Source: an uncultured Verrucomicrobiae bacterium (GTDB lineage Bacteria; Verrucomicrobiota; Verrucomicrobiia; Chthoniobacterales; JAATET01). From it: a stretch of DNA of 64,000 bases. Each line of letters opens with the position of its first letter. The stretch's first letter is position 1. The stretch spans positions 646 through 64,645 of the forward strand of contig CAVUDH010000015.1 of NCBI GenBank assembly GCA_963740185.1, in the 5' to 3' direction. The notes beneath the pieces are model-generated. The model was given only the letters and a program-made list of their open reading frames with translations, ran no database searches and was not told where the DNA came from. Both the position numbers and the translations under genes were made by a program. Positions 1 to 28,929 of the stretch are shown one piece after another.

Positions 1-1374
1 GTCTTCGGCGTTCCCCATCGGCACGTGCGCACGGCAGCCCCGCGAGCTTGCGCGGGATCGATGTCGATCCCGAGCACCGACTCGCCGCGGGTGTGGAGGT
101 CTTTCGCCATCCGGCGACCAAGGGTGTTCATGCCGACGATGATGACGTGGTCCCCGCCATCCGGTCGGTCGCGATCTCGGTATCCTCCTCTGCGCCCCAA
201 ACGGACGCAACGCCCACGCCGTGATCGCCCGGTCGAATTGGATGGCAACGACGACGCCGAGATAGTCCGATCAGGCCCACCAGCCCCGCGAGCGCCACCA
301 GTTCCTCGTCGACCAATCCCACCGCGAACGCCAACGCCAGGAACAGGAAGGAAAACTCACTGATTTGCGACAGCGAGATGCCGGCGAGGAGAGCCATCCA
401 GCACCATCTGGAATCGCAAGATCCGCACGATCACTGCCACGACGAGGGGTTTCACCAGCAGCGCCAGACGCGCTCGCCAGCCAGGCCATCGGCCATTGCG
501 GCGAGCGCATCGCCGAGCTCCGTCCCCATTCCCAGCGTCACCGAAGAAGATGGCGATGAAGAACCCCGTCAGCGGGATCACGCGCCGTGCAGGTCCCGGT
601 TGTATCGGCAATTGCGCCGAGACTGATCCCGGCCAGAAAGCCCCAGCCTCGTGCGACAAATGGAAGACGTGCGCCGCGCTCACGAGGAGAAAACGCCACG
701 CCAGACTCCAGATGAGCGAACCTGCGGCGATCGCGCTGCGCTCGTGAACAGGGGCGGCAACACCCACCTCCCGGCGACAAACACCACGACCAGCAGCACC
801 CCCAGTCCACCCAACGCGACGCCCAATCCCTTCGCGATGTGGGCCAATTCAAAACTCCCCCCGCCCTTCAGTCCCGCCAGCAGTGTGAGCAGCACGATGA
901 CGAAGCGATCCTGCGACGAGGAGCTCCCACCGCGATCCGACCGTGAACGAGTCCGTCGCCTTCTTCTCGTCCAGCAACTTGATCAGCCACGACCGTGCTG
1001 CTCAGCGTGAGGGCCACCCCGAAGAGGCCGCTTCCAAGGCCCCGAATTCCAGCAAGTTCGCCACCCAAATCCCGCCGCCAACGTCACGCCGACCTGACCC
1101 ACGCCCGCGAGCACCCCGACCTTCCCGAGCACGCGGATCTTTTCCACGTTCATCTCCAGACCGACCAGGAACAGCATCAGCGCAATGCCCACGTGCGACA
1201 CCGTCTCGAGCGATTCCGAGGTGCCACCAGCCCGGTCGCCGGGCCCACCGCCAGTCCCGCCACCAGATACATCACGATGGTCGGAATGCGCAGCCGCCCG
1301 CCCGCGAAGGAAAATACAAACGCCGCGATCACGATGGTCGCCAGCGCTTTCAGAAATTCGCTCCCGACCTCCAT
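1..1374 (-). pseudogene. Kef/CPA2-type cation:proton antiporter with C-terminal TrkA-N-like domain; 3' end runs off the window start; frame broken at least 5 times
   Basis: Minus-strand pieces in different frames (ORFs 1177..1485, 983..1384, 868..1068, 680..895, 128..397) read MEVGSEFLKALATIVIAAFVF, HVGIALMLFLVGLEMNVEKIRVLGKVGVLAG, ALTLSSTVV, LLTLLAGLKGGGSFELAHIAKGLGVALGG and ISLSQISEFSFLFLALAFAVGLVDEEL. HVIIVGMNTLGRRMAKDLHTRGESVLGIDIDP (Rossmann/TrkA-N-like) follows at about 40..135. Confidence 0.7.
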
Positions 1375-1602
1375 GGGCCGCCACGCTGACAGACGAAAAT
1401 TTTCACCGCAACCCCGTAGCGGCGGGCTTCCGGACTGTCGGGGTATCGGGCAGGCTCCACGTCGACCGGCTACGCGTTCCCACACTCGGCCGCATCGAAG
1501 TGACGGTAGACGCGGAGGTAACGATGATCGGCCCTGGGCACCGCGTCACCCACGCGCACGTCGCTAAAGAAGTCCGGCGGATCACCTTGATACATAAAAT
1601 TT

Positions 1603-3144
1603 ATGCACTCCCGCCCTCTCGACACGATCATGAACGAACCACATCTCCCCCACGTGCCCGGTCGACGCCGGGTTCCGCTCAGGACGAAGGTCATCTGGGG
1701 TTTCGGCGGAATGGCCGACAACTTCATGTTCAACACGCTCACGGCGCTGGGCACGTTGGTTTACGTGAATCACTTCGGCCTCACGCCGGCGTTGGCCGGA
1801 CTCGCGCTGGCCCTGCCGCGGTTGATCGACGCCTTTACCGATCCGTGGATCGGCAACGTCTCGGACAATCTGAAAACCCGCTTCGGGCGAAGGCGACCGC
1901 TCATGTTTTTTGGCGTGATCGGGTGCGCGCTGCTGCTGCCCCTGCTGTGGACGCCGCTGGGCGCGGAGACGGCGCAGATCCGTGGTTCAGCAACATCCCG
2001 TTCTTTTACATCGTGATGATCGGCAGCCTGCTGGCCGTCGCTTACACGCTCTTCGTCGTGCCCTACACCGCTCTGGGCTTCGAACTGTCGTCGGATTACG
2101 ACGAGCGGACCCGCGTGATCGTTTGGCGGATGTATATCGGCCTCATCGCATCGGTCGCGGCGGGGTGGCTGTTCCGATTGGCGGCGGCGGACATGTTTCC
2201 GGATCTCGGAGCGGGTGCGTTCTGGGTGTCGGTGGGCGTGGCTGTAATCGTGTTGATGTCGGGGATGATTCCCGTCTTCGGCTGCCGTGAGGACCTCGAA
2301 GCGGAGAAGCAGGAGTCCATCCGACTGATCCCGGCGATCAAATACACGATGACGAACAAGCCATTCGTCATTCTCTTCGTCGCCTACACGACCATCATCG
2401 TCGCGCTGTTCGTGTCGCAGAAGCATCGCACCGCTGCTGATTCAACACTACGTTTACCAGGGCAGCACCAAGGCGATTGGGAACTTTCAAGGCTGGCTCA
2501 TGACGCTCGCCGTCGTGCTCTCCTACGCGAGCATGTTTCTGATCACGTGGATTTCCACGCGCCGCAGCAAGCGGATCGCGATGGTCGTCGGCCTCTCGAT
2601 CGTGCTCGTCGGCACGGTCGTGAATTACTTCGCGATCGATCCGCGCTGGCCGTGGATGATGTTCGTCGCCGGCGGCATCACGTTTCTGGGACTTCAGGGG
2701 TGCTGGTTGATGATCGACTCGATGGTCGCGGACGTCTGCGACGACGATGAATTGGCGACCGGTCGTCGGCGCGAGGGAATGTTCAGCGCGGTGAAGGGCT
2801 TCGCGCTCAAGGCAGCGCAGGCGATCACCTTCGGCATCGGCGGCTACATGGCGACGGCGGTCGGCTACGATCCCGCGGTGGTCGATGCGGCCGGATTGGA
2901 TGAGGCGACGGCGATGCGGATGAAGTTGGCGCTGGTCGGTTTCCAATCGCTCGGGCTTGTCCTCTCGATCGGCCTCGTCTGGCTCTACCCGATCAGCCGC
3001 GCCCGCGCCGCCGAGACGCAACGGCTACTGGAGGAGCGGGCCTCGGGGTCTCGGACGACGATCCGCCGGATTCGGTCACGACACAATTGCCGTGATCCAA
3101 GGTCCGATGACCGCGGATGGCGGATTTCCTCTTGCCATACGTAA
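1603..3144 (+). pseudogene. GPH-family (glycoside-pentoside-hexuronide):cation symporter, MFS superfamily; two frame changes (about 1975 and 2420)
   Basis: Three frames join into one transporter. The pieces are VIWGFGGMADNFMFNTLTALGTLVYVNHFGL..RLIDAFTDPWIGNVSDNLKTRFGRRRP, then PWFSNIPFFYIVMIGSLLAVAYTLFVVPYTALGFELSSDYDERT, then MIDSMVADVCDDDELATGRRREGMFSAVKGFALK. This is the typical MelB/GPH signature layout. Confidence 0.75.
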
Positions 3145-4667
3145 CGTTCAGTTTCAGCTTACCTCTTCCTCTTCCCGATCATGCCGACGTAAAAGTCATC
3201 TCTCACATCCTTCTCGCTTTCTCCCTCGGATCCGCGGCTCTCGCCGCCGACGACGGGAGGAAGCCGAACATCGTCGTCATCTTCACCGATGACTGGGGGC
3301 ACGGGGACGTCGGCGTGCACGGGGTGCTGGACGACATCAAGACACCGCACCTCGACCGTCTGGCGAAAGACGGGGCACTCTTCACGAATGGTTACGTCAC
3401 CTCGCCGCAGTGTGCCCCTTCCCGGGCAGGCCTGATCACCGGTCGCTATCAGGCGCGGTTCGATTTCGACTTCATCGGCTTGGGCCCACTGCCCCTTGAA
3501 GAGATGACCATCGCGCAGCGCCTGCAGAAAGCCGATTACGTGACCGGCATGGTCGGCAAGTGGCACCTGGAGCCGACTGCGCCGGACGTGCGTTGGGCGT
3601 CGGACCACCATCCGGAACTGATCGAAAATGGCCGCATCGTCAGCCTCCCGTATGAGGCCATCGCACCTTATCTCCCCGGGAAGCGCGGCTTTCAGGAATT
3701 CTATTGGGGGTTCCACAGCCCCTATTTCACCAACTTCGACCGCGAGGGCCGGGATCGCACGAAGGAAGGCAAGTGGGAAGCCACCGAAGACTATCGGATC
3801 GCGGTGAAAACCGAGGCTGCGCTTGCGTTCATCGAGCGAAACAAAACCAAACCATTCTTCCTTTACGTGGCCTACGCCTCACCGCACGTCCCGCTGGAGG
3901 CACCGAAGGAATACCTGGACCGTTTCCCCGGCGAGATGCCCGAGCGCCGTCGCTACGCACTGGCGATGATGGCCGCCATGGACGACGGGATCGGCGAGAT
4001 CGTCGCCGCACTCGAAGCGGCGGACTTACGGAAAACACGTTGATCGTGTTTGCGAGTGACAACGGAGCGCCTCTGGGAACGCAACTCGGCGAGCGCTTCG
4101 GTGACGTGATGCCGCTCGATACGAAAACAGCCCACTGGGACGGATCGCGAAACGATCCTTACAGCGGCGAGAAAGGAATGCTCGCAGAGGGCGGCATTCG
4201 CGTGCCGTTCGTCATGACGTGGCCCGGGACCATCCCGGCAGGACAAAGGATCAACTCTCCCGTCATCACCCTCGACATCGCCGCGACGGCGAATGCGATC
4301 GCCGGATTGCCGGACGATCCGACTCTGGACGGAATCAACCTGCTGCCGTATCGTCACGGAAAACGCGGGGAAGCGCCGCAGCGGGATTTGTTCTGGAAGT
4401 TCTGGGCGCAGGCGGCGGTTCGCTCCGGCGACTGGAAACTGATCGAGGTCGAGGGCCAATCGCTGCTATTCGACCTGGCGAACGACGCCGAGGAAACACT
4501 GAACTTAGCGGAAAAGAATCCTGAAAAGGTCGCCGAACTCCGGGAGAAACTCATCCTGGGCCGAGCAGATGCAGCCGCCCGGCGTGCCGGATCGGGACGC
4601 GAACGGGCAGGAAGAGATCTGGTTTGACCACTACTTCGGGCTGGATTTGAAGGGCTCGAGGCGCTAG
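3117..4667 (+). pseudogene. Formylglycine-type sulfatase (canonical C-A-P-S-R); frame changes near 3190, 4020 and 4555
   Basis: PNIVVIFTDDWGHGDVGVHG and SPQCAPSRAGLITGRY in the first frame; TENTLIVFASDNGAPLG..GGIRVPFVMTWPG in the second; WAEQMQPPGVPDRDANGQEEIWFDHYFGLDLKGSRR-stop (4667) in the third. The likely true start is ATG 3181 (MPT.KVISHILLAFSLGSAALAADD signal peptide), with an indel in the aaaa run at 3191. Confidence 0.8.
3139..3148 (+). promoter_or_regulatory. ACGTAACGTT motif copy, 33 nt upstream of the probable sulfatase start (3181)
   Basis: Reads ccatACGTAACGTTcag. The same core ACGTAACG recurs at 13142..13149, 15205..15212 and 17028..17035 (see findings). Confidence 0.3.
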
Positions 4668-4842
4668 CCCGCGTCCGCCCACCTCCGAGGGCAGCAAATC
4701 ATCTCAGCATCGGCGAACGATTTCAAAATACCCCAATTCTGATTGACATACATAACCTTCCGTGTATTTTCTCATCGCACGTGGCTGCCCGACCCGAAGT
4801 GTCTGTGGCACAACCCCCATGCCTCAAACTCAGACTCCAGAA

Positions 4843-5795
4843 ATGAAAATGCTCCCCATCCTCCGAATTCTCCCCGTTCTCTCGATCGGGTTCCTTGCCA
4901 CTACTGGCTCTGCCTCCGCGCAAACTAAATATGACGGAGGTCCAACCGGGACCGGCACAAACTACCTGACGCCCGAAAACTGGGCTAGTGATTCCGTTCC
5001 ACTTGGGACGGATATCGCGGTGATTGATGAGAATTTCACCACGTCTCTTACCGGTGCCGCTGGAGCGAATCGACTCGTTTTGGGCAATAATGCTGCGATG
5101 ACCGTGGCGTCTGGCGGGACGATGACTATCGGCGCCGCAGACCTCTACCTTGGAGCGAGTGGAGTTGCGGGGGTCACGGACGGGGGCGACGCGTCGCTGA
5201 CCGTGTCTCCGGTGGAACGTTGACTGCCCAGCGTCACACCTACATCTCATCGCAGAATCCTTTTGGCCGCAACGCGACGCTGACTCTCAACGGTGGAACG
5301 GTCACTGCGACGGATCGCTTTTGGGTCGGTAACGCCGCAGTCAACGATGCAGTTACCGGAACGGTTTCCGTGAACGGATCGACCGTGAATTGGACAACGG
5401 CCTCCGCTCGACATGAATCTTGGGCGGCGGCAACGGTTTCGCCACCATCAACTTCACCGCCGGATGCTATGGGCGTCAGCACACTATCCGCAGTTGCCCT
5501 GACTCTTGGCGGCGCGAAGGCGACACTGAACGTCGACTTCACGGGATATTCCATCGCAGGTTCGTCGACTCTGAATCTCTTCAATTATTCGGGAGCTCTG
5601 TCGGGGACTTTTGGCACGGTCAACTTCATTGGTCTCGGTGCGGGCGAGTCCGCTTCGATCGACTACGGCACGGGATTGAACAGCGTCATCTCGGTCACAG
5701 CAGTGCCGGAGCCCAGCACTTACGGCCTGATTCTGGCGGCGGGAGCGATCCTTGTCGGCCTGACCCGGGCGCGCTCGAAGCGGCGCTCGGCGTAA
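4843..5795 (+). pseudogene. Secreted PEP-CTERM sorting-domain protein (parallel-beta/passenger-like); about 3 frame changes (5215, 5405, 5460)
   Basis: Signal peptide MKMLPILRILPVLSIGFLATTGSASA. C-terminus is VTAVPEPSTYGLILAAGAILVGLTRARSKRRSA (PEP motif + TM + basic tail). Paralogous along its length to 14322..15186. Confidence 0.75.
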
Positions 5796-5815
5796 TCGGG
5801 AAATCCTCGACCTTC

Positions 5816-5856
5816 AAGAGGCGGCTGGGTTCGATCCAGGCCGCCTCTTCTGTTCC
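5816..5856 (+). terminator. Putative intrinsic terminator hairpin after the PEP-CTERM gene
   Basis: AAGAGGCGGC (5816..5825) pairs with GCCGCCTCTT (5840..5849) around a 14-nt loop. It is followed by a T-containing tract (ctgttcct), not a clean U-run. Confidence 0.4.
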
Positions 5857-6052
5857 TGCCCCCGCTGGATAGATCGGGTGACTGGTTGCCGGTGCCAGCG
5901 GGCCAACAATCAGACCCGCCATAAGATTGGTCGACCCACGTTGCACCAGGCGACATTGCTTGCGAAAATCCCAGAGACGATATACATATCGTTTAATAGA
6001 CATTGAAGAGATCTTGGTGTCTTCCCTTCTTCAGATCCCATCCCCCCGAACA

Positions 6053-6838
6053 ATGAATCTCAGATCGTCATTCTCTTTTCCGCCCGTCAAGTCCAGCGAA
6101 AGAGCCTTCACCCTCATCGAAATACTCGTGGTCGTTTCGATCATCGCGATCCTGGCGTCTCTGATTTTTGCGAGCGGTAAGCGGAATACAGAAGAAGGCC
6201 GTCGCCGCGAAGTGCCTGTCCAACATGAAGAGCGTGGTCACGGCGGCACATCTTTTCGCGAATGACAACGACGGAAAGCTGCCTCCGCTCTACACGGCGA
6301 AGGCGATCTTTCCGCAGCAGGCCGCCGATTCGAGATCCGGTGGCCATCGGTGCCGGCGTGCTGGCGTGGCCGGATATCCTCAGCGCCTACGGTTGCGAGG
6401 CGGCCCACGTGTCGTGCCCGGCTCTGCACACGTCGGCCACGCCGGGCGACGGGGGCATTTCGAGCACCAAGAGCCCTCTGGGGATCGGCATCAATTTCCC
6501 GAGCCTGGCTTCGATGTGGGTGACGCCGTCGGCGTTCGAGCGACAGATGCGGATCGGACGACCATCGAAGACTGTTTATTTCGCCGATGCGGGCGGCGGG
6601 CCGAAGCTCCGGCGGGCCGTTTGATAAACGAGAAGATACGCCGGGCCGGGGGGCCACGTTTTTCCGGGGCGCGCGTGACGAAGGAGTCAATGTGATGCCG
6701 CGGCATTCCGGGAAGGCCAACGTCGTATTCGTCGACGGGCACGCCCTCGCCGTCGATCCGAACGACATCGACTGGGGACCGCGCAATCCCTCGTTCACCG
6801 ATGCCATTGGTTGGAGCGACGCGACGGCGGAACGTTAG
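6053..6838 (+). pseudogene. Prepilin-type N-terminal cleavage/methylation domain protein, DUF1559 / H-X9-DG family; about 3 frame changes
   Basis: N-terminus AFTLIEILVVVSIIAILASLI. Then KKAVAAKCLSNMKSVVTAAHLFANDNDGKLP. C-terminal RHSGKANVVFVDGHA has the exact H-X9-DG spacing. Confidence 0.8.
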
Positions 6839-6853
6839 CCGACCTCTTATGTT

Positions 6854-8361
6854 ATGAAAATTCATCCCCACCTCCGCACCGTGATGTGTTCCGCGGGATT
6901 CCTGGTACTCCTGTCTTCCGGTCCGTTTTCCAGCCAATGCCCAGACGGACACTCTCGCCGGATAACGTGGACGGTGATCAGCCGGAAGTGGCCATGCCTG
7001 ATCCGGAACTTACTGCCAATACATTTAAGCCCAGTCCGAAGTCCTCCGATTCGGCGGCGCGGGCGAACGTGCGCCACCCCGCCATTCAGTCCGGCCTCGA
7101 AATCACTCCCTCTCCGGAAGGCGTGAAGGTCGCGGCGGGGTCGCTCGAGTTGAACGGCAACGAAATCGCGGTGGAGGGTGTCATTCTCGAGGTAAAATCC
7201 CCGCCATCGCTGCCCGTGAAGGGCCAGGCGATCCGGCTCTCCAAAGCACCCTTCGACGAGTGGAAGAGCCGGACGCTGCTCGCGGGACAGCCGCTGGGCA
7301 TGAAGAAGTGATGCCCGGATCGCTCATTTCAGAAAGCGTCGAGATCACGACCAGCGACGGTCGGAAGCTGGTGGCGGGGAAGGATTTCGTTCTCGATCCG
7401 GCGTGGAACGCCGTGGCGTTGACGGCAGCCACCGACTTTGCGGAAGGGCCGGGCTACACCGCCGACTACCAACTCGGCCCCCGGCGGGTCGATGCGGTGT
7501 GCGTGTCGAAGACGGGCGAAATTTCCTTGCGCGCCGGGGAAGCCGACCTGGCGTCGCCGCCCGTTCCCGAAGCCGCTGACGGAGACATCGTGCTGGCTCA
7601 CGTCTACTTTCCCGGCGGCGACGTCTCGGAGGTCCAGCCGGAGAACATTTTCCCCGTGGGCGACCCATCGCCGGATGCCCGACCGGAACTTGCGCTTGAG
7701 CGATTGGAGAAGACTCGCGCGAAACTCGAGAGTGGCGAACCGGTCACCATCGTCTGCTGGGGGGATTCCGTCACCGTCGGCGGCGACGCGGAGCCCATGG
7801 AGGAGATGCGTTACTCCGCCGTCTTCGAGCGGGCGCTCCGGCAGCACTATCCGAAGGCCCGCGTGGAAACGATCGCCAAGGGCGCTTCGACGAATGCCAT
7901 GTGGTTCAATCCGAAGCACGATCTCTCGAAGCGATGGAAGGACATCGAGGCGGCGAAGCCGGACCTGGTGACGTTGGAGTTCGTGAACGACTCGTATCTG
8001 ACGAAATGGCCGCAGTTCAAAAATCAGTATGACCGGATCCTCCAGAAAGTGAATGCGATGGGCGCGGAACTCCTGCTGATCACGCCGCATTTTACGATGA
8101 TGGAGAAGATGGGGCACCAAGACCTCCGCGGAGCCGGAGTCGCGACCCTACGTCACCCATCTCCGCCGATTCGCCGACGAAAATAACGTGGCGCTGGCCG
8201 ACGCTTCGAAGCGCTGGGAGCAGCTCTGGCGACAGGGTATTCCGTATGAGATTTATCTTAAGAACGGGATTAACCATCCCGACAATCGCGGCCATCAAAT
8301 CTTCGCCGATGCGCTGATGGAATGGTTCGCCGGAAGGCGGCGAAAAGCTACAAGTAGCTAA
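6854..8361 (+). pseudogene. Secreted SGNH/GDSL-family hydrolase with an N-terminal beta-rich domain; about 3 frame changes (6935, 7300, 8140)
   Basis: Signal peptide MKIHPHLRTVMCSAGFLVLLSSG. Block I is VTIVCWGDSVTVGG; then TLEFVNDSY. The last frame gives NGINHPDNRGHQIFADAL (DxxH block V) and stops at 8361. Confidence 0.7.
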
Positions 8362-8370
8362 AAATGCAGG

Positions 8371-8460
8371 GGCCTCACGCGGAGGCGGAGAGACGCAGAG
8401 GGAAGGATGTTTCGATTTTGCGTGAAATTCTCCAAGCCTCTGCGGCTCTGCGCGAGATTC
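8371..8460. repeat. REP-like palindromic intergenic element, copy 1 (between convergent gene ends)
   Basis: ggggcctcacgcgg..GAGAGACGCAGAGG..(loop)..CCTCTGCGGCTCTGCGCGAGATtc. It shares GGGCCTCRCGC, AGAGACGCAG and TCTGCGCGAGAT with 28930..29001. Confidence 0.6.
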
Positions 8461-8467
8461 GGAATCA

Positions 8468-10664
8468 TTAGCACGAGGTGACGGAAAACAGCCCGTGCGA
8501 GCGTTCGTTGGGGACGACTTGGAAATACTCGTCCAGAAATGCCTCAGGGTTCGCCGCCAGGACCTCGCGCGCTTTCCCAATGGCCTGCCCCCCATCGCCC
8601 GCGCCCTGCGTGCCCCACGGTTGATCGCCGTAGGTGGCCAGCGCGACGGCAGTTCGCGCGGCGGTGCCATGGGGTTCGAGCGCGACCTGCCAGGTCGCGT
8701 CGGACGGGATTCGCTCGGTGCCCTCGGGCGTGGCGATTTCGATCATCGCGCAGCAGGCGGGGCGTTCGTAGAGCGAACCGGCCTTGAAAATTTGCAGCGT
8801 GACGGTGTTTTCGCCTTCGCGGAGAAGCGGACCGATCTCCGCCCGATAGGGCGGTGGACCGTCGCCGAACATCTCGACCCGCTGCCCATTGACCCATGCC
8901 CGCACGAGTCGGTCGGAACTCGTACGCCGTGAGCCGGGCCTGCGCCGGGCCTGCGGCGGACTGCGTCTCGAAGGTCCGCGGAGAAGTATCGCGATGCCCA
9001 CGGGAGGTTCGACTTGAAGGTAGTCGCGTCCTCCCAGATCCATTGCGCTCCCGCAAGCGCGTCGGCTCCTTGTTCGGCGAATGCCTCACGTTGATTCTCG
9101 TGGTCCTCCGCGAGCAGTGTCGCGAGTTCGTCGATCAGGAATTTCGGTAGCGCCTCGCCCGACTGCCGGGTCGTCCGCAGCAGGCTCGCGAGATTCGTCT
9201 CGCGCGCGTGCAGCCGGTAGGCGCGGACTCGACGGAGCAGGTGGTGGGTCTCGCGGATGCTGGCCTCGAAAGATTACCCGATGGCTGGGGGAGATCCGAT
9301 CGATCACGGGCTCGAGTGCCTCGAGCGCCTGCTCGATTCGCTTCTCCGCAAAGCCGAAGCGAAGCTGGACGTCCTCCAGCATCCACGGGTGCGGCGGCGC
9401 GTCGTCGTTCTTCATGAAGATCGCGCGTCGGGTCGATTCCCAGGATGGGGTGGGGACCTGCGCACCGCGCAAGCCGGCGGCGGTGAGGGCATGGGAGACA
9501 TCGGACGTCCCGAACTCGCGCAGATACCAGGAGAGGTCCCACGGAAGAAATTCCTGGGCTTCGCTGAAGAGGCGCCACGCTTCGATCGACGGCGTCGGCA
9601 GCGTCGCCGAAGGGTGCCGCCAAGTCCCGGACGATGGTGGCTTCAGTGATCTCCTCGTCCGCCATCATGGCGCGCGCGCCGGCCGAGAGGTTAGCGTCCC
9701 ATTTGGTGGGGTTTAGCCCGTAGTATTCCTTGATACCAGTGACACCAGGCACGCTGGCAATCGTCCGCACTTGGCGGATCACCGCGTGAGGGTGCATCGA
9801 GATATTGATAGGGTTCGAGCTCCTCACTCATTGCTCCGAGGAAGCTCTCGACGAGGACGGGGATGTTTTTCTGGCTGGCGAGGCGGACGGTGTTTTTCAG
9901 CCAACGGTCGACGGGCAGAGTGAGCATGGTTTCCGCGACGTTCGGATGGAGGTCGAGGCCGAGGCCGAACGACTCGAAATCGGTCGACGCATTCGTAGAC
10001 CTGCCCGGCGGACAGTTCCCACGGCGACCACCAGAGCCATCCGTCGGCGTGGACGCCCGCCATTCGTCCGCCAGAGCCGCGACGAAGGGGACGACTTGCT
10101 CGGCGAGGGTGTGGCCGCGGGTTTTGGCGCAGGTGCCAAACTCGCTCGTGACCCAGGCGTCTTGGTCGTAGGTGTAGACGAGAATGTCGTCGACGCCGGG
10201 AAAGTCGGCGTCGAAGGCCCGGATCATCTCGCGGTAGTATTGAGCGTGGTCTCGGGGTCGAGCAGGCTGCGGGGCTGGGGTCCGTCGAAGTCGGTGTCGA
10301 TGCCGTATTGCGCGTTGAAGGGCGCGCCGAAGTGGAAAATGGTGCGCAGGCCCAGGTCGCGGCAGAGCGCGATCCGGTGGGTCAGTTGGGCTCGGCGTTC
10401 GTCGCGCCGCTCGGGGACGCTGCGCGGCGGGAGGTCGGGCTGGTTCGAATTCCGCGAGGCGGGCGGGCGGAAGCGACACGAGGTCTTCGAGATTGAGGGG
10501 TTCATCACCGGGTCGACCGCCCCAGGCGACGTTGAGCTGGACGGTGTTGAACCCGAGATCGCGGAGTCGGGTGAGATTGTCCTCGTTCCATTCGACGTCG
10601 GGATGCGAGGGGCAGTCCGACGAGTGGCGACTCGGTATCGAAAGGGCTAGGTGGAATGGGTCAT
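8468..10664 (-). pseudogene. Glycoside-hydrolase-like protein (TIM-barrel-like N-terminal part, C-terminal beta-sandwich sugar-binding-like domain), family unassigned; at least 6 frame changes
   Basis: Fragments: HPDVEWNEDNLTRLRDLGFNTVQLNVAWGG; RIALCRDLGLRTIFHFGAPFNAQYG; YYREMIRAFDADFPGVDDILVYTYDQDAWVTSEFG; DGWLWWSPWELSAGQVYECV. The C-terminus is WIWEDATTFKS..VRAWVNGQRVEMFGDGPPPYRAEIGPLLREGENTVTLQIFKAG. The ATG at 10664 overlaps the upstream stop (ATGA). Confidence 0.45.
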
Positions 10665-13099
10665 GGACGATCGGCGCGGATCGTGCGGACTCGTTCGATC
10701 TCGATTCGCCCCGGGGCGTTGGTCGGGATCGATTCGGAATTGATTGATCGTTCCTTCCCACTGCGGGCTCTGGGCCAGGTCGACCGGTAGGTTTGAAATT
10801 CGTCGCCGGACTGCGACGGAAAAGGTGATGCAATGCTCTGGCGTCCACTTCGCCGATCTTTTCGGCGGTCCAGAAGATCGATCCCCGCGTGCCCGTTCTC
10901 GACTTCATGGTGATCTCGATGAGCGTCGAACCTCTCGGCGGCGAAGCTGCAGCATCGGCGGGCGAGAGGAAGGCGGGGTCCTCGCCGACGCTCACGGCGA
11001 TTTCGCGACCCTCCTCGAGTGCGACGTCCGTCACCCCTTGAAGTGGCCGCAGGTAGAGGCTGGCTTCGCCGGATTCGAAGTTCGAGATCGAGACCGTTTT
11101 CCGGCAGACCCAACTTCCGTCGCGTAGCGTTCGCTGTAGACGGAATGCACGTCGGCCCACTTGGCGTCGGTCTCGAAACCTGGCACTTCCGCGGCCGGCG
11201 GGAGCGGTATTGCGTAGGGGCCGCGACGATCGGAGAGGACGTCGCGGATGGCACTGAGTTTGCCGAAACCTTCCTCTGCCGAAGGTTCGACGTGGCCACC
11301 TTCGCCCCATTCGTTCCAGGCTTCGAAGAGCGCAAGGCGGGGCTCGTCCTCGACGTAAGTCGGGCAACTCTCGAGCATTCGGCGAAACGCGCCGGGCGTG
11401 TTTCCGTCGTGCGGACGGAGCCTTCCGGCGAGCGGCCGTAGTCGTCCCAGCCCACCCAAGCGACCGGGATGTAATCGAGACCCTGCTCGTGCGCCTCGGC
11501 CTGAGCGGTCGCGTAGGCTTCGCGGTGACGCGGGATCAGGGCGGGGTAGGGGAGCTCGAATCCGCTCGCGATCGACGGTCTTCGCCACGTCGCGGAAGCC
11601 GTAGGCATACGCGGTGACGCAGTCGAACCCGGCGGCGTCGAAGTCGACAGGTAGGGCATGATGTGGACGGCGACGAAGTAGACGCCTTCGTGGCCGCCTT
11701 GGACTTGGCGAATGGCCCGCATGCGGTCGAGCGCTCGCTCATCTTCGCGAGGCCGCCGATTTCCCGATGATCTTGATCGGGGTGTGGAGGAAGACGACGG
11801 GTTTGCCGTCGACCTTCAGGTAATTCGGTTGGCTGAAATATTTGTCGCAGAGGATCGTCATCGCGTCGGCGAGCGCTTCGTCGGAGAACGACTCGGGCTT
11901 GAATTCCGCGGCGTGATTTTCGGTGCACCAATTGACGGCGAATTCCATCTGCGACGAGAAGCGGCTCTTCGAGGAACCCCTCGTCGAGCGCGTCGTTGAG
12001 GTATTCCATCCCCTGGTTCTGATACCAACAGAAGATGAAGAAGGAGATGCCGTGCTCGATGGCCCACCAGGTGTGCCAGTCGGCGACCTCGGGCAAGGCC
12101 TCGTCGTAGTAGCCGAGTAGGGGGTCCAGGTAGGGGACGTCGCGAACGCCCCAGTCGGCGCGATCCCAATCGAGGGTGACGGGAAGATAGTAGGCTCCGA
12201 GTTTCATGTCCATCTTCGGGGAGGACGGGTGGGGGAGGTCCTTGGTGGCGAGTCTCGATTTCCTCGGCGAAGGTGACGAAGGGGAGGGTGGTGACGGTGA
12301 GACGTTTTTGGTTCTCCACCGACTTTCGCGGTGACGTTGGCGGTGATCGGTTTCGAGAGATCTTCGGGAAACCGGTGAGCGGGATTGCGCGCTCGTACGT
12401 CTCTCCGTAGCCGAGCCGACCGATATCCAGGTGACTTGTGTCCGCCGTCGAGAGACCGGCGGGGAGGTCGAGATTTGATCTCGAGACGTCGTCGTAGACC
12501 GCGAGCCGCGGTTTTCCACGCGGAGGTCGAGCGTGGCGTCCTGGCCGGCATTTTTGCGGATCTGTGAGCAGACGAGGTCGACGGAGAGGCTGTCGGGGCG
12601 GACGGTGGCGGGCTGGAGGGTGAAGTCGGCGAAGTCGGCGGCCCACCCGGATGGGATGTAGATGACGATTCGCGCCTTGACCGCCTGCTCCGGCGCGATG
12701 ACTTCGTAGCGGTAGGGAGTCCATTGGCCAGGGATCATCACGCCCATCATGGCGTATTCGGTGCCGAGTTCCCGGCCCTTCGCGTCGAGCCAGACGAGGT
12801 GGGCGCTGAAGTTCATCTCGCCTTCGATGTGCCCGATCTGGACGCTGAAGTCGTAGCCTTGGAGCGGCTGGACCGCGAAGGGCCTGGATCCCACGTTGAG
12901 CGGGCCGGTCCCGCGAGCGTCGACTCGCAGCACGAATGGATTCGTTTCATCGCCGGATTCGATGGCGACGTGACCCTCGTGCTGCGGCGCGACGTTCCAC
13001 GACTCGAGGGAGGTGTCCAGATTTGAAAGATCGGCTGCCGAGCCCGGTGGATGAAACCAAAACGGTAATAACGAGAGAGTAAACCGGGAAAAAACGCAT
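10661..13099 (-). pseudogene. Secreted multidomain protein: CBM-like + CARDB-like + GH99-like (WbsX-type) catalytic-like domain + C-terminal beta domain; at least 8 frame changes
   Basis: Signal peptide MRFFPVYSLVITVLVSSTG. Next, LRVDARGTGPLNVGSRPFAVQPLQGYDFSVQIGHIEGEMNFSAHLVWLD. The WbsX/GH99-like blocks are MKLGAYYLPVTLDWDRADWG, PLLGYYDEALPEVADWHTWWAIEHGISFFIFCWY, FAVNWCTENH, YLKVDGKPVVFL, DYIPVAWVGWDD and LFEAWNEWGEGGHVEP. Confidence 0.6.
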
Positions 13100-13135
13100 A
13101 TCGAGACTGGGTGGTGATGGCTACTGCTGTCCGAT

Positions 13136-13149
13136 AGTAAACGTTACGT
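13136..13149. promoter_or_regulatory. Candidate LacI-type operator / ACGTAACG motif copy in the divergent region between 10661..13099 and lacI-family 13268..14347
   Basis: aGTAAACGTTACGT has an AACGTT palindromic core and GTAA/TTAC arms. It lies 40-50 nt upstream of ATG 13099. Confidence 0.3.
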
Positions 13150-13267
13150 GTCAAGGGCGGTCAGGTTCAGCCGTTCCGATGAGGCTTGCGGGTGGTTTCG
13201 GAGCGTCATAGAAGGACTCCCAGCCTATGTGCGACGCCCGCTTCCCCGAGTCCCCCGGTTCTCCTTC

Positions 13268-14347
13268 ATGAAAACCACCGTCGGTCGGAGATCGAGTGGC
13301 CGAATCACGCTACGGGACATCGCGAAGGACGCGGGGGTTACGGCGGCGACGGTATCCGACATTTTGAACGAGCGTGAGCGGTGCTGGGCCTCGGCGGAGA
13401 CGAAGGAGCGCGTGCGGGCCGCGGCTGATCGGCTCGGATATCGTGTAAACCGCGCGGCGCGCCTGCTGCGGACCGGCAATTCCGGTCTCATGGGCATCCT
13501 CATCAGCGACATCTTGAATCCTTTTTACATCTCCCTCGCGCATTCTCTGGAGGTCTCGCTGGAAGCCGCTGGCTACGAGGTCGTGATCGAGGACTGCGCC
13601 GGGGACCCGGCGCGGGAGGCGCGAGCCATTCGCAATCTTCTCTCGCTGAGCGTGGACGGCATGGTCTGCGCCACGCAGTTCTCCGACGAGAACATCGCGA
13701 CCTTGCGAGAATACCGGCAGTCGGGGCAGCGGCTGGTTTTCGTCGGCACGCCGCCCGCGCAGCTCGAAGTCCGGACCGTTCGAGTGGACGACAACGACGC
13801 GTTTGCCGACCTCGCGGAGTTACTGCGGGCCACGGGCCACGAGCGCATCGCTTACGTCTCAGCCCAGCGACTTCCCGCGAAAGATTCCACTCGGGAGGAG
13901 CGTCTGCGGCGGGCCCTCGAGGGCGTCGGTCTCTCGCTCGCCAAGGACTTGGTCGCGGAGTGTCCCCCCTCGCTCGACGAAGTCGCCCGCGCCGTGCGCG
14001 AGCTGTGCGAACTCCCCGCCCGCCGACGTCCCACGGCGATCTGCGCGATCAACGACATCACCGCCGTGGCCGTGGTCCGTGCCATTCTCGACACTGGCCT
14101 GCGGTTTCCGGAGGACATTTCGGTCGTTGGCTTCGACGACATCGACCTCGCACGCTGGCTGCCGTGCCGGTTGACGACGATCTCACAAGGCTACGGGCTG
14201 ATCGCTGAGGAGAGCGTGCGCTTGCTGCGGGAAGATTCCGACGCGGCGGGCGTCGTGCCACCGATTGTTGTCACCGCGAAATTGATGATCCGGGACTCCG
14301 TGGTCCCGGTTGCTCAACCGGTCAGTGCTTCTCGATCTCAAGGCTGA
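13268..14347 (+). CDS. LacI-family transcriptional regulator (intact)
   Basis: HTH ITLRDIAKDAGVTAATVSDILNERERCWASAETKERVRAAADRLGYRVNRAARLLRTG, followed by a periplasmic-binding-like fold (GILISDILNPFY..VVGFDDIDLARW). Confidence 0.9.
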   Translation: MKTTVGRRSSGRITLRDIAKDAGVTAATVSDILNERERCWASAETKERVRAAADRLGYRVNRAARLLRTGNSGLMGILISDILNPFYISLAHSLEVSLEAAGYEVVIEDCAGDPAREARAIRNLLSLSVDGMVCATQFSDENIATLREYRQSGQRLVFVGTPPAQLEVRTVRVDDNDAFADLAELLRATGHERIAYVSAQRLPAKDSTREERLRRALEGVGLSLAKDLVAECPPSLDEVARAVRELCELPARRRPTAICAINDITAVAVVRAILDTGLRFPEDISVVGFDDIDLARWLPCRLTTISQGYGLIAEESVRLLREDSDAAGVVPPIVVTAKLMIRDSVVPVAQPVSASRSQG

Positions 14348-15186
14348 CCGCCCCGTTATCGCCTGAGCCATAATCGACGGTCCCGGTGAAGCCATCTGGC
14401 AATCCCTCGATGAAGACGTCGCCAAATTCTCCGGTGAGCTTGCCGGAATACGTGATCAGCGGATAAGTCGCGTTATCCGTCGGCGCGAGGGCTTCGGCGT
14501 TCACTTTGAGCGTCGCGTTTTCGCCACCCAGCGTGACGTTGACCGCCTCGATTTTGCTGATGCCCGAGGCGTCGAAAACGAGATTGATGATCGCCTTACC
14601 GCCGACGCTACCCAGGTCCACATCCGCCGTCGGCGTCCCCCACGCCAGACCACTGCCTTCGATGGTCAACTCGCCGACGACTGCTTGATTCATAGCATCC
14701 GAGCCGACCCAGAAACGATCGGAAACTACGACCGCCCCGCCGGAGAACTTCACCATTGCGCTGCGCCCGTGGGGATTGGTCGCGGCGAGGTAAAATTTCG
14801 GTGCCGCGATGCGGCCGCCCTCCTTTAGATCGAGCGACGCCGTGCCGGTGCCGCTCACGCCATTGAAGCCACTGAATCCCACGTAGAGGTTGTTCTTCCC
14901 GACTTCGAGGTGCCCGCCGGAATCGACGATCAGCCCGGAATTATTGCCGAGTGCCAGCCGCGCAACCTCGGCGGGCTCGGAGAGCGTCGCGGAGTGTGCC
15001 TCGTCGAGCACGGCGGCGTCGTTGATCCCGGGTGGGCCGTCGGGGCTCCAGTTTCCGGGCTCGAGGAAGCTCCCGCCGTCCTCACCGGTAAATTTGAAAT
15101 CGGCGGCGGAGGCCCAGGGGGCACTCAGCGCGGCGGCGAGAGCGAAGAGCGGACAATAAGCGACGGGAGGGACGAAGATTCAGCAT
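14322..15186 (-). pseudogene. Secreted paralog of the 4843..5795 PEP-CTERM protein, lacking the PEP-CTERM anchor; 1 frame change near 15160
   Basis: ATG 15186 (MLNLRPSRRLL), then a shifted frame gives FALAAALSAPWASAADF (signal peptide). The body aligns with 4843..5795 (DRFWVGSDAMNQAVVGELTIEG vs DRFWVGNAAVNDAVTGTVSVNG; YSGKLTGEFGDV vs YSGALSGTFGTV). It ends AVSLEIEKH-stop exactly where the paralog continues VTAVPEPS. Confidence 0.65.
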
Positions 15187-15197
15187 ATCAAAGAGGG

Positions 15198-15214
15198 AAC
15201 GTTGCGTTACGTAT
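15198..15214. promoter_or_regulatory. ACGTAACG motif copy (AACGTTGCGTTACGTAT), 12-28 nt upstream of ATG 15186
   Basis: On the coding (minus) strand it reads tatACGTAACGCAACGTTccc. Confidence 0.3.
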
Positions 15215-15238
15215 AACCGCATTGACCGGTGCGGCAAT

Positions 15239-15268
15239 TGCAAAGTGGGCGGGTGCAAAGTGGGCGGG
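15239..15268. repeat. Perfect 15-bp tandem duplication TGCAAAGTGGGCGGG x2
   Basis: The units at 15239..15253 and 15254..15268 are identical. They sit 53-82 nt upstream of ATG 15186 (minus-strand gene). Confidence 0.9.
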
Positions 15269-15293
15269 AGATCACCCGGGCGGCAGCGCGGTA

Positions 15294-15501
15294 TGTGTTT
15301 AGCGAGTTAGACTGACTCAAGGAGCAGGGTTGAGTGTTGATGGAGGTTGAGTGTTGATTGGAATACGACAACGAGAAGTTCCCGTCGTGCGAGGCATTGG
15401 AAGCTCCCACTCAACCTTCAACAATAGCCACTCAACATCCTGCGGGCACTGGACGCAGGCATTGTTGGCGGCTGGAAGCCGCCACTCCGGGCGCTAAACA
15501 C
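15294..15501. other. About 210-bp non-coding element bounded by 11-bp inverted repeats and containing nested hairpins (MITE-like or structured RNA)
   Basis: TGTGTTTAGCG (15294..15304) pairs with CGCTAAACACA (15492..15502). GGTTGAGTGTTGAT occurs twice (15328, 15345), facing CACTCAAC twice (15408, 15430). Further hairpins are CCTGCG..CGCAGG (15439..15459) and GGCGGCtggaaGCCGCC (15468..15484). Confidence 0.4.
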
Positions 15502-15523
15502 ACACGTAGCCCGGTGGCCGCCA

Positions 15524-17026
15524 TCATTTCAACGTCTTGGCGTCAGCCGCGTGCAGCTCGCGCATTCTCTCGAGCTCCGCGGTGAATGCCGGGTTGGCGG
15601 CCAGATTCGTGAGTTCCTGCGGATCGTTTTTCCAATCGAAGAGTTCCTCGTAAACCGGCTTGCGGTCGATGTAGCGGATGTATTTCCATTTCCGGTCGAA
15701 GACGGCTTCCGTCGGCAGGATTTGGCCCGCGTGCCGGTAGGGATGCTCGAAGAACGCGTGCGTGCGCCAGCCAGGTCGGCCGGTCAGAGCGTCGTAAATG
15801 TCGCCTCCCTGCATGGTCGGTGGCACCGGGACGCCCGCGAGCGCGAGCATGGTGGTCGTGAAATCGATCGTCAGGATCATCGCGTCGCTGGTGGCGGGAA
15901 GATCAATGCCGGGCCGCAGATCATGAACAAACCCCGGAACTCGGATCGACGGATCGTAGGTCAGCCATTTTCCCGTGAGCCCGAACTCGCCGTGAAAATA
16001 TCCGTGATCCGAGGTGAAGAGGATCACGGTGTTGTCCGCCAGTCCGCGCGCTTCGAGTTCCTTCACGAGTTGACCGACGGCGTCGTCCACGCTCATGACG
16101 AGCCGCGCCTCAGCCCGGATGTTCCCCTGCAGTAGTCCCTTTTTATCCAAATACTTTTTGCCCTCGATCCGCCCGAGGTGTCGCTCGAAAAATTCGGGCC
16201 GCGTGTCGGCGGCGGCGTGGGTGGCCGTCGCGGGAATCGGGAGGTTCACGGTCTTGTAGGCATCCGCGAATCGCGGCTCGAAGTCGCTCACCGGGTTGTG
16301 CGGTGCCTTGAACGATACCGAGAGACAAAATGGCTTCCCTGCCGGTGCCGCGTCCAGAAACTGGCGGACCTTGATCGGGACGACCTGACCGTCGACGTGG
16401 ATCGGATCAGCGAGTCCCTTGCGCCCGAACCGGTTCTCGAATCCTTGCTTGCCGGCTTCCGGGTGCGGGCAGTCGCAGAGGTTGTCCGGGCCATTGGTTA
16501 GCACGTAGCGACAATCTTTTTCGTGCCAATAATTCGTCTGACGCGGCTGCCCTGCCCAAAAATCGAAGTAACCCGCCGCCTTCGTACTCAACTCAGGCGT
16601 GTCGCCGACGCCCCACTTGCCGATGAAGCCCGTGTAGTAACCACCTTTTCGAAGGAGGACCGGATAGAGCTCCTCACTCTGTTCCTCGGTAAAGGTCTTC
16701 ACGAAATCATCGATCCCGTGTCGGCGCGGATACTGACCGGTCAGGATGCTCGCCCGGCTGATGGAGCAGATGGGGGCTACGGCGAAGCAATTCGTGAGAA
16801 TGGTTCCCTCTCTAGCGAGGCGATCTAGGTTCGGAGTCTGGATTCGATCGTCCGCGTAGCCGATCCAGTCCCAGCGCTGATCGTCCGTGAGGAGAAAGAC
16901 GATGTTGGGAGGGGCGGGCTCTGCGGTGGTCGAAGTTTCCACTCCGAAGGTGGGCCGAGAGAAAAACAAGAGGGTCGTGAGGAGAAGAAAGCGGATCACT
17001 CGGGCAGGGGGCATCGGTGGCTGCAT
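15524..17026 (-). CDS. Sulfatase (intact) with a non-canonical C-S-I-S-R active-site motif
   Basis: PNIVFLLTDDQRWDWIGY, NCFAVAPICSISRASILTGQYPRRHG, TVILFTSDHGYFHGEFGLTGKW. The ATG at 17026 (MQPPMPPARVIRFLLLTTLLFFS signal) is preferred over the TTG at 17059. Confidence 0.9.
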   Translation of the reverse strand: MQPPMPPARVIRFLLLTTLLFFSRPTFGVETSTTAEPAPPNIVFLLTDDQRWDWIGYADDRIQTPNLDRLAREGTILTNCFAVAPICSISRASILTGQYPRRHGIDDFVKTFTEEQSEELYPVLLRKGGYYTGFIGKWGVGDTPELSTKAAGYFDFWAGQPRQTNYWHEKDCRYVLTNGPDNLCDCPHPEAGKQGFENRFGRKGLADPIHVDGQVVPIKVRQFLDAAPAGKPFCLSVSFKAPHNPVSDFEPRFADAYKTVNLPIPATATHAAADTRPEFFERHLGRIEGKKYLDKKGLLQGNIRAEARLVMSVDDAVGQLVKELEARGLADNTVILFTSDHGYFHGEFGLTGKWLTYDPSIRVPGFVHDLRPGIDLPATSDAMILTIDFTTTMLALAGVPVPPTMQGGDIYDALTGRPGWRTHAFFEHPYRHAGQILPTEAVFDRKWKYIRYIDRKPVYEELFDWKNDPQELTNLAANPAFTAELERMRELHAADAKTLK

Positions 17027-17027
17027 A

Positions 17028-17035
17028 ACGTAACG
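17028..17035. promoter_or_regulatory. ACGTAACG motif copy in the divergent region between the sulfatase (ATG 17026) and the 17131..20268 GH-like gene
   Basis: The plus strand reads cataACGTAACGatatc. It lies 96 nt upstream of ATG 17131 and 2 nt upstream of ATG 17026. Confidence 0.3.
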
Positions 17036-17130
17036 ATATCTATGAGCGATGCGCCGCAAAGCGTCAATCCAGCGACTCCATACTAATCGTTCCTTGTCAC
17101 GCTGTGTTCTCGCATTTACGCCTTCCGCTA

Positions 17131-20268: not shown

Positions 20269-20326
20269 AGTTCCTACGAAGCGCGACCGTGACGGCCATC
20301 CGGCACCTGCCTGGACGAGCGCGGGA

Positions 20327-20779
20327 CTATACCCGCACTAACCGTCTGACCTCCCATCCCTCGCCCCGCTCGACGACCCCGACTTCGCAAAAATCCCCCT
20401 CGAATTCGGGCAATACCGTATCCCCCTCGACCTCCCGCAGCACCATTGTCAGCAACACCTCGTCACACCGCGGCAGCAGCGCCCGGTAAATCTCCGCGCC
20501 CCCGATCACAAAAACCGTCCGCCCATCGCCGACCTCCGTCACTTCATCCGGCGAACCTACCAACCGCACTCCCTCGACCGCGGTCATCGACCGCGATACC
20601 ACCACATTCTCCCGCCCGGGCAGCGGGCGGCCAATCGACTCATACGTCCGGCGCCCCATCACAACCATGTGCCCCATCGTCGTCTTCTTAAAAAACGCCA
20701 GCTCCCCCTTGAGCTTCCAAGGCAATCCCCCGTCCCGCCCAATCACCCGATTCAGAGCCATCGCCACGATCGCGGTCAC
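20327..20779 (-). CDS. folA: Dihydrofolate reductase
   Basis: MTAIVAMALNRVIGRDGGLPWKLKGELAFFKKTTMGHMVVMGRRTYESIGRPLPGRENVVVSR, 150 aa, immediately downstream of thyA. Confidence 0.9.
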   Translation of the reverse strand: MTAIVAMALNRVIGRDGGLPWKLKGELAFFKKTTMGHMVVMGRRTYESIGRPLPGRENVVVSRSMTAVEGVRLVGSPDEVTEVGDGRTVFVIGGAEIYRALLPRCDEVLLTMVLREVEGDTVLPEFEGDFCEVGVVERGEGWEVRRLVRV

Positions 20780-28925: not shown

Positions 28926-28929
28926 TGCT

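Follow-up and report, generated by a model that had tools for sequence, protein, structure and literature searches.

Do the many frame breaks at the left end of this contig record the decay of a glycan-utilisation island, or are they errors of the deposited sequence? The window (the whole stretch of 64,000 nucleotides that was analysed) opens with eight otherwise well-conserved genes which, in the first 13.1 kb, are interrupted by ~64 frame breaks of 1-2 bases each, as counted by frameshift-aware protein-to-DNA alignment. It is very probable that these breaks are errors of the deposited sequence, arising from thin long-read coverage, and not mutations of the organism. The features concerned are the following.

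1..1374, minus strand: Kef-type CPA2 cation/proton antiporter with a TrkA_N domain, truncated by the start of the window
1630..3072, plus strand: GPH (MFS_2) sugar:cation symporter, two breaks
3181..4655, plus strand: sulfatase, breaks at 4020 and 4553 and a probable third at ~3185
4843..5795, plus strand: PEP-CTERM protein, break at 5206-5212 and +1 shifts at 5409, 5419 and 5459
6017..6838, plus strand: DUF1559-type protein, extra bases at 6173-6176, 6333 and 6604
6811..8354, plus strand: SGNH/GDSL hydrolase, breaks at 7309, 8130-8136 and 8329
8334..8468, no strand: junction without two genes, where L001 and L002 (related genomes, see below) carry 3.4 kb more
8468..10640, minus strand: GH-like gene a, encoding a large conserved protein, ten breaks from 8924 to 10622
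8924-12501, no strand: hot patch 2, 29 breaks, about one per 120 bp
10661..13155, minus strand: GH-like gene b, encoding a WbsX-like (PF14307) protein, nineteen breaks from 10727 to 12501
13268..14314, plus strand: LacI-family regulator, intact

Frame breaks and their distribution

The references for the break counts were intact orthologues from related Verrucomicrobiae genomes (L001, L002 and L003). Plain tblastn proved unsuitable since it crossed wrong frames at low identity in GC-rich DNA, and a frameshift-aware alignment was therefore written. The aligner reported no false positives: neither the seven gene pairs compared between L001 and L002 nor the ~20 clean window genes of equal divergence gave a single shift. 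Between 39 and 53 kb, where the neighbourhoods of the desaturase homologues have no gene order in common with the window, breaks were scored by codon-usage Viterbi, Pfam continuity and one homologue set. A Viterbi frame switch in TonB (36051-36199) was dismissed as false; it falls in a proline-rich region, and the ORF 35761-36486 is intact.

That the eight genes are indeed broken, as an earlier note on this DNA had claimed, is borne out by domain matches that cross the frame switches. The MFS_2 match (2-427/427) spans three frames of the symporter, the Sulfatase match (1-300/301) continues over a frame switch, and the GDSL and WbsX matches are continuous in the same way. All 20 breaks of Kef lie in 1-1224. 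Alignment of this gene with its 539-aa L003 orthologue reveals 86% amino acid identity, 20 shifts and zero stops; at the nucleotide level there are ~27 short gaps at 80-83% identity. The symporter, 93% identical in amino acids to that of L002, lacks a base at 1978 and has an extra one at 2421. In the sulfatase, a single base is lost at 4020, where GGG has become GG, just as the earlier note had read it (a G missing from a short run), and a second shift follows at 4553. The lesion that it had placed in an aaaa run at 3191 is really a base missing at ~3185, a probable one-base loss that detaches the ATG at 3181 from the gene body. The truncated sulfatase fragment of 3117-4043 (308 aa) has itself been deposited as a protein, on a public contig of 125,780 bp which also carries the exact proteins encoded at 23670-24446 and 32280-34514.

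The three +1 shifts in the PEP-CTERM protein compensate and jointly restore the frame. At its C-terminus a VPEP motif precedes a hydrophobic stretch, after which comes a basic tail, and its L001 orthologue gives weak PEP-CTERM family matches. The DUF1559-type protein has a prepilin N-terminal methylation motif and an H-X9-DG C-terminus. A family match was looked for with GH-like gene a (8468..10640) and none was found. In GH-like gene b, nine of the nineteen breaks fall inside 10727-11120. Beyond the dense zone, on its right, the LacI-family regulator is the first gene free of breaks.

The ~64 breaks found by alignment are about twice the 25-30 that had been counted by eye. To the right of the dense zone the two counts agree, with 4-5 breaks in 13.1-39.2 kb (22261, a doubtful one at 22676, 22867, 31113 and 39015) against the ~5 reported earlier, and the uninterrupted ORFs of 3.1, 2.2 and 1.5 kb described there are all three intact. 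A further 10-13 breaks, or ~0.5 per kb, occur in 39.2-64 kb. The earlier note had named a uniform indel density as one finding that would speak against its block. When computed, the density is non-uniform: the probability that at least 63 of 82 events fall inside 13.1 of 64 kb under a uniform model is 1e-27. The local difference, put at 10-fold by the note, is ~25-fold when 1-13.1 kb is compared with 13.1-39.2 kb, but the single homogeneous block that it pictured gives way to two hot patches. Counted per kb across the dense zone, breaks number 17, 4, 1, 0, 2, 4, 3, 1, 4, 4, 11, 8 and 4, and this internal heterogeneity is significant (chi-square p = 2e-7). The two hot patches together hold 49 breaks. 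Hot patch 1 (1-1224) has one break per 60 bp and hot patch 2 is the one listed above, while in the intervening 7.7 kb breaks thin out to about one per 550 bp.

Stop codons, selection and gene order

Adjacent genes interrupted in runs by frameshifts are a feature of pseudogene-rich, decaying genomes such as those of Mycobacterium leprae and of recent host-restricted symbionts, and in this respect the locus resembles them. The corresponding reading is that the genes from Kef to the GH-like pair are pseudogenes, left after a glycan-utilisation island fell from use. The breaks are present in the deposited sequence, accessory islands do decay, and 1423-20341 is an island relative to L003, one that misses two genes of both relatives. 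However, real decay also relaxes dN/dS and adds nonsense codons, mobile-element insertions and larger deletions; the broken genes show none of these, and the two missing genes may simply reflect variable gene content.

Not one of the 4002 frame-corrected codons is an in-frame stop. Random substitutions in these codons would yield a stop in 3.2% of cases, and bacterial pseudogenes gather 5-20 neutral substitutions per indel. On this neutral expectation 10-40 stops should have appeared, and the probability of zero is at most 5e-5. Insertion sequences were sought in the broken genes and none was seen; apart from in-frame ones, no indel there exceeds 2 bases.

Measures of selection point the same way. 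dN/dS lies at 0.05-0.25 in the broken genes, 0.03-0.23 in their intact neighbours and 0.06-0.28 between one relative and another; on the window branch it is 0.06-0.26, near the values of the L001 and L002 branches. Among individual genes, the symporter has 0.05-0.07 and GH-like gene b 0.17-0.25 (L001 versus L002, 0.175), while Kef has 0.109 despite its 20 breaks. Thus, even with 19-20 breaks, dN/dS is the same as in functional genes. The relaxed selection envisaged in the earlier note does not materialise, the broken genes being equal to the intact ones in this measure. They are without any sign of decay and are under purifying selection as in functional genes.

Every broken gene has an intact orthologue, in conserved gene order, in the related genomes. 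The comparison with orthologous loci, which had been proposed earlier, accordingly finds intact ORFs, with indels private to this sequence. It also shows how the dense zone lies relative to the island. In L003, Kef directly adjoins the DHFR gene, and in the window 18.9 kb separates the two. Kef, the worst-hit part of the dense zone, belongs to the conserved backbone and not to the glycan island; conversely, the right third of the island (13.2-20.3 kb) is clean. The dense zone, then, does not coincide with the glycan island. Genuine decay is also hard to reconcile with scattered breaks in housekeeping genes elsewhere in the window, for example in katG at 58970, and with a one-sided sequence bias of the insertions, described below, that has no known mutational basis. 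Taken with the stops, dN/dS and the private indels, this makes decay extremely unlikely. Between the two alternatives left by the earlier note, it is poor coverage or polishing that holds up.

A chimeric join, in which the left 13 kb came from the reads of a rarer organism and brought low depth with it, is very unlikely as well. The wide separation in the window of two genes that are neighbours in L003 speaks for it, and the GC skew of 1-19 kb is unlike that of 20-36 kb. Yet the left island boundary falls within the dense zone, which ends 7 kb short of the right one, no repeat is present at either junction, and the worst-hit gene belongs to the L003-like backbone. Kef has also diverged from L003 (dS 0.84) to the same degree as the backbone genes at 20-32 kb.

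Types of lesion and the TCGA motif

All 63 aligned shifts are of 1-2 bases. A three-way alignment with L001 and L002 over 8470-13160 reveals 38 indels private to the window, of which 33 are of 1-2 bases. Each of the two relatives has 4, with no clean coding single-base indel among them. Insertions outnumber deletions by 2:1. The earlier note had situated the lesions in short homopolymers, but 29 of the 41 inserted bases stand alone, in a run of one; 10 belong to runs of two and 2 to runs of three. The non-run fraction (71%) compares with a background of 55.5%, and deleted bases, as read from their contexts, lie in runs of at least two in 12 cases of 20 (background 44.5%). Homopolymer-type error was rejected because most inserted bases are outside runs. 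GC content was also rejected as a cause: 35-37 kb is GC-richer (0.676) yet clean. Internal repeats or paralogues overlapping the hot patches were searched for and none was detected. Insertions that create CpG number 12 of 35, as compared with ~21% expected from base composition, a weak effect that was dropped.

In hot patch 2, 9 of the 20 clean insertions are located inside the tetramer TCGA or just 5' of it, and 0 on its 3' side (0.97 TCGA-linked insertions expected, p = 1.5e-7). Those that flank the motif in this patch are divided 4 to 0 between the 5' and 3' sides. The link was found post hoc and survives correction for 256 tetramers. Outside hot patch 2, TCGA lies close to 1 of 15 clean insertions and to 3 of the 18 other break sites, a proximity that does not look above background. 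The one-sided enrichment looks like a read-chemistry signature.

Motif-linked systematic Nanopore consensus errors are documented, for example at Dcm sites (Wick et al. 2019, PMC6591954). The likeness lies in the motif, short and palindromic as methyltransferase sites typically are, and in the fixed one-sided offset. Methylation-motif errors, however, hit most copies of the motif at any depth, whereas here ~9 of the ~72 TCGA sites in the 3.6-kb hot patch 2 are affected, in that one patch, and ~600 sites elsewhere in the window are unaffected; methylation of TCGA is itself hypothetical. It could also be imagined that the indels are real and very recent, produced by an indel-only process on a strain-variable glycan island and its neighbour before substitutions or stops accrued. 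One candidate here would be error-prone repair of restriction-type nuclease breaks at or beside TCGA. We find this reading scarcely credible.

Another source of such indels, still a technical one, would be the piling together of reads from co-occurring related populations, resulting in a garbled polished consensus with spurious 1-base indels. Hot patch 2 lies mostly inside 9.3-12.9 kb, a segment in which nucleotide identity to L002 is 83-96% (most 300-bp bins reach 88-96%), against 67-78% in the flanks. Similarly L001 and L002, both Nanopore-only and from one sample, share 6.5 kb of the island without a gap at 96-98.6% identity, flanked by ~70% identity. High-identity segments in divergent flanks imply that segments are exchanged among neighbours, and these would attract foreign reads. 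In addition, the gene pair absent from the window at 8334-8468 (L001 11050-14485), ~450 bp to the left of the start of hot patch 2, hints at nearby structural variants, although it may be ordinary gene-content variation. Against mixed reads, L001 equals L002 at the insertion sites and the inserted base is not an alternative allele, so that the three-way alignment shows no signature of both alleles being kept at these sites. L001 and L002 passed their shared segment without one indel. Moreover, none of the relatives found is more similar than usual in the Kef patch, and the one-sided TCGA bias is hard to derive from a mixture. We consider this cause possible, but unlikely.

Probable thin long-read coverage

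It appears that the source of the window is a long-read assembly, with Nanopore as the likeliest platform, to judge from the closest public relatives. These are 84-96% identical in nucleotides; no conspecific sequence was found in two JGI metagenome scans, and the closest Logan contigs are 84% identical. The catalogue to which the relatives belong was produced with metaFlye and one Medaka round, with no short reads, and its authors note error effects at low coverage (PMC12313526).

In an assembly of this type, read errors of 1-2 bases would survive where too few reads cover a site. Because consensus error drops very steeply with depth, ordinary depth fluctuation is expected to yield such patches. 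The assertion in the earlier note that a uniform error process cannot explain a 10-fold local difference ignores this steep dependence. Thin coverage would lead to a background of 0.2-0.5 breaks per kb together with kilobase-scale patches near single-read error, and the indel rate of the patches, ~0.8-1.6%, would be roughly at that level. The 13-kb block would then be made up of the two hot patches and the moderately affected stretch between them. Hot patch 1 may be the contig end. Hot patch 2 probably derives from a single read, or from very few that share one orientation, both depth and orientation being what we infer here; single-orientation support would let a strand-specific, TCGA-linked read error persist. 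In an illustrative model, a mean depth of 4-5 leaves 2.6-5.9 kb of the 64 kb at a depth of at most 1, which agrees with the ~4.8 kb of hot patches. Bins under about 40-fold coverage require extra polishing (PMC9262707).

Thin coverage of this sort likens the locus to known indel errors of low-coverage Nanopore or PacBio CLR assemblies: indels of 1-2 bases split conserved genes and are absent from better-covered relatives, a background of breaks extends over the whole contig, and fragments are deposited as proteins. Such indels fragment gene calls, a problem that the IDEEL test measures and that frameshift-correcting tools are built to mend (PMC9262707). The classic residual error of long reads is homopolymer-bound and biased to deletions, whereas here insertions prevail 2:1 and 71% are outside runs. 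The hot patches also differ from it in an error density near the raw-read level. The excess of insertions away from homopolymers fits better with raw-read-level or PacBio CLR-like error.

The case is one for caution rather than for biology. In thinly covered long-read metagenome genomes, error density can vary 25- to 80-fold within a few kilobases, and such errors need not be bound to homopolymers. Artefact and decay can nevertheless be separated without reads, by means of in-frame stops, frame-corrected dN/dS and intact orthologues in the same order. Read naively, this contig would have its glycan island, a potassium-efflux gene and katG scored as pseudogenes, and the completeness of the genome would be underestimated.

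Counting the frame breaks

Because the G+C content of the window is 63%, spurious long ORFs are abundant and ORF lists alone are uninformative. Reading frames were traced with a codon-usage Viterbi model trained on the window itself. At 1-13 kb its path switches frame many times at short intervals without leaving the strand, and at 13-39 kb it stays in a single frame over long segments. Translations joined over the switches yield full-length domains (MFS_2 2-427 of 427, Sulfatase 1-300 of 301, GDSL 1-178 of 178, WbsX 48-350 of 350), indicating that the genes are really split between frames. Breaks were counted with a purpose-written local protein-to-DNA alignment allowing 1- and 2-base shifts; plain tblastn was rejected for this purpose since it ran through wrong frames. 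As false-positive controls, seven gene pairs between L001 and L002, two loci from related Verrucomicrobiae, gave no shift, nor did about 20 window genes of equal divergence.

Frame breaks in the eight genes of the block at 1-13.1 kb, from protein-to-DNA alignment
Kef-type antiporter gene (Kef), 1-1374, minus strand, incomplete at the window start: 20
GPH symporter: 2
Sulfatase: 2
PEP-CTERM protein: 4 (one break and three +1 shifts restoring the frame)
DUF1559-type protein: 3
SGNH hydrolase: 3
GH-like gene a, 8468-10640, minus strand: 10
GH-like gene b, 10661-13155, minus strand, WbsX-like: 19

The eight genes that the earlier note had listed as broken are all confirmed by alignment, but its count of 25-30 breaks was too low: the total is 63, and a 64th is probable, one base lost at ~3185 that cuts off the sulfatase start codon. 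The LacI gene (13268-14314) has none. The block averages 4.8 breaks per kb, with densities of 0.19 at 13.1-39.2 kb and 0.5 beyond 39.2 kb. The contrast between the first two, which the note had put at about 10-fold pending a computational count, is 25-fold (p = 1e-27 under uniformity), and density is not uniform. Breaks are also uneven within the block (chi-square p = 2e-7). Hot patch 1 (1-1224, in Kef) carries 16 per kb and hot patch 2 (8924-12501, in GH-like genes a and b) 8 per kb, nine of them within 10727-11120, while the 7.7 kb separating them has 1.8 per kb.

The note's estimate of about five breaks at 13.1-39.2 kb stands: the only ones detected at 20.3-32.2 kb are those at 22261, 22676 (doubtful), 22867 and 31113, and a further one lies at 39015, in a Rieske/desaturase fusion. 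The long uninterrupted ORFs it described there were also recovered, those at 15.5-20.3 and 32.3-36.5 kb being intact with full-length domains. The remaining 39.2-64 kb holds 10-13 breaks: 39906, 58970 (katG), 60933 (histidine kinase), 62103 and two uncertain calls; 46054 and 46720, which comparison to homologues confirmed; and ~41540, 42150, 42527/42618 and 43375, based on Viterbi and Pfam. Along the whole contig the background is one of isolated breaks, 0.2-0.5 per kb.

A second glycan-type cluster (PEP-CTERM/PATR-repeat protein, DUF1559-type protein, LamG protein, sodium:solute symporter, LamG+DUF1961 protein and alginate-lyase-domain proteins) occupies 40900-50900 and has ~6-7 frame breaks; in its left 6 kb they come at roughly one per kb. 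The LamG+DUF1961 protein has homologues of 450-500 aa that end at ~47083 in window terms; here (45740-49507) the frame remains open and continues through a double alginate-lyase ORF to 49507. Either a natural fusion or the loss of a stop codon could explain this. The AraC-type regulator at 39354-40355 aligns to its homologue only up to residue 238 of 308, and after it comes a 96-aa fragment on the minus strand that resembles, by eye, a LacI-type sugar-binding domain; this may reflect a real rearrangement or further errors.

Reference loci and the island

L001 and L002, found by scanning genomes with the SGNH fragment that is free of breaks, come from uncultured Verrucomicrobiae in the Microflora Danica long-read catalogue and have ~80% protein identity to the window. 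Both share the gene order of window 1626-14847. At both loci the SGNH gene and the GH-like genes are separated by a further gene pair (3.4 kb; L001 11050-14485), encoding proteins of 493 and 500 aa without Pfam match; the window lacks this pair and has ~130 bp (8334-8468) instead. A protein search with LpxH (23670-24446) met an identical protein on a 125,780-bp NCBI/ENA contig and led to a third locus, L003, which belongs to a relative at 88% identity. L003 runs colinear with the window over 1-1422 and resumes at 20342-32236, so that window 1423-20341 is an 18.9-kb island relative to L003, in which Kef directly adjoins the DHFR and thymidylate-synthase genes. This glycan-utilisation island holds the GPH symporter, two sulfatases, two PEP-CTERM proteins, the DUF1559-type protein, the SGNH hydrolase, the two large GH-like genes, the LacI regulator and a protein of 1054 aa that matches GH106 weakly. 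Its genes are present in L001 and L002 in a different context. Two further relatives' loci, L004 and L005, match 53.6-62.7 kb and 36.9-40.1 kb, respectively.

At 9.3-12.9 kb, window and L002 are 83-96% identical in nucleotides (88-96% over most of the stretch), compared with flanks at 67-78%. Similarly, L001 and L002, from the same sample, share 6.5 kb (9000-15500) at 96-98.6% identity between flanks at ~70%. The island is a mosaic, and this pattern of sequence identity points to recent exchange of its segments among co-occurring Verrucomicrobiae.

GC skew flips sign sharply at ~19-20 kb, ~50 kb and ~57-59 kb. From ~+0.1 at 9-14 kb it falls to between -0.1 and -0.3 at 20-36 and 41-50 kb, with values close to or slightly above zero at 36-40 kb; at 51-56 kb it reaches +0.23 and then turns negative again. 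These changes suggest islands or inversions. A 184-aa minus-strand ORF (36311-36865), about half the usual length and with an N-terminus resembling, by eye, RhaT-type sugar transporters, overlaps the 3' end of the TonB gene (35761-36486) and may be a truncated remnant. A 38-bp sequence in two copies at 89% identity, one just downstream of TonB (36506-36543) and one forming the last ~38 bp of a hisD-like gene (50998-51035), may be a terminator or small repeat element.

Assembly artefact or gene decay

The earlier note had left two readings of the block, a poorly covered or poorly polished stretch and genuine decay of the glycan-utilisation island. Every one of the 63 shifts involves 1-2 bases, and the 4002 frame-corrected codons contain no in-frame stop. 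Neutral decay brings 5-20 substitutions per indel and, since 3.2% of substitutions in these codons would create a stop, 10-40 stops would be expected. Nor is dN/dS raised: the broken genes have values of 0.05-0.25 (Kef 0.109), the same as intact neighbours and relative-versus-relative comparisons. All orthologues at L001 and L002 are single intact ORFs, and in a three-way alignment 38 indels are private to the window versus 4 in each relative. At 11.7-12.3 kb, with 95-96% identity between window and L002, seven single-base gaps occur in 600 bp; L001 and L002 show no gap over their 6.5 kb of high identity, so the relatives' pipeline yields a clean consensus when coverage suffices. Dense zone and island do not coincide, the worst-hit gene, Kef, belonging to the backbone and the right third of the island being clean. 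Decay is thus effectively excluded by the absence of stops, by dN/dS and by the private indels, and the frame breaks are very probably an assembly artefact with no biological feature behind them.

Character and source of the errors

Insertions outnumber deletions (41 versus 22). The homopolymer pattern proposed earlier holds for the missing G at 4020 but not in general, as 29 of the 41 inserted bases stand alone (55.5% among all bases); deletions, with contexts read by eye, mildly prefer runs. In hot patch 2, nine of the 20 clean single-base insertions are associated with TCGA (expected 0.97; p = 1.5e-7, or ~4e-5 after correction for 256 tetramers), as against 1 of 15 elsewhere. Five of the nine fall within the motif and in each case create it, four immediately adjoin it on the 5' side (plus strand), and none adjoins the 3' side. 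Two of seven clean deletions in this patch also follow TCGAC, by eye. Motif-linked consensus errors are known from Nanopore data (PMC6591954). As the motif is palindromic, the one-sided link would be the trace of a strand-specific read error if all supporting reads had one orientation; methylation-linked read error is one possibility.

Consensus error drops steeply with depth, which would leave read errors in thinly covered patches. Indel density in the patches (0.8-1.6%) is close to single-read error rates and, by an illustrative calculation, a mean depth of 4-5 leaves 2.6-5.9 kb of the 64-kb window at depth <=1. Hot patch 1 may be a contig end. For the relatives' catalogue, Nanopore reads alone were assembled with metaFlye, followed by a single round of Medaka. 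Its authors describe effects of errors where coverage is low (PMC12313526); bins below ~40-fold coverage need extra polishing (PMC9262707). A consensus built from mixed populations is a suggested variant of the technical cause, in line with the overlap of hot patch 2 with the segment 83-96% identical to L002, but the three-way alignment lacks the signature of both alleles.

The truncated 308-aa sulfatase fragment (3117-4043) is an exact entry in public protein collections, from the 125,780-bp NCBI/ENA contig, as is the TonB-dependent receptor (32280-34514). With the deposited sulfatase fragment, the artefact has spread into databases.
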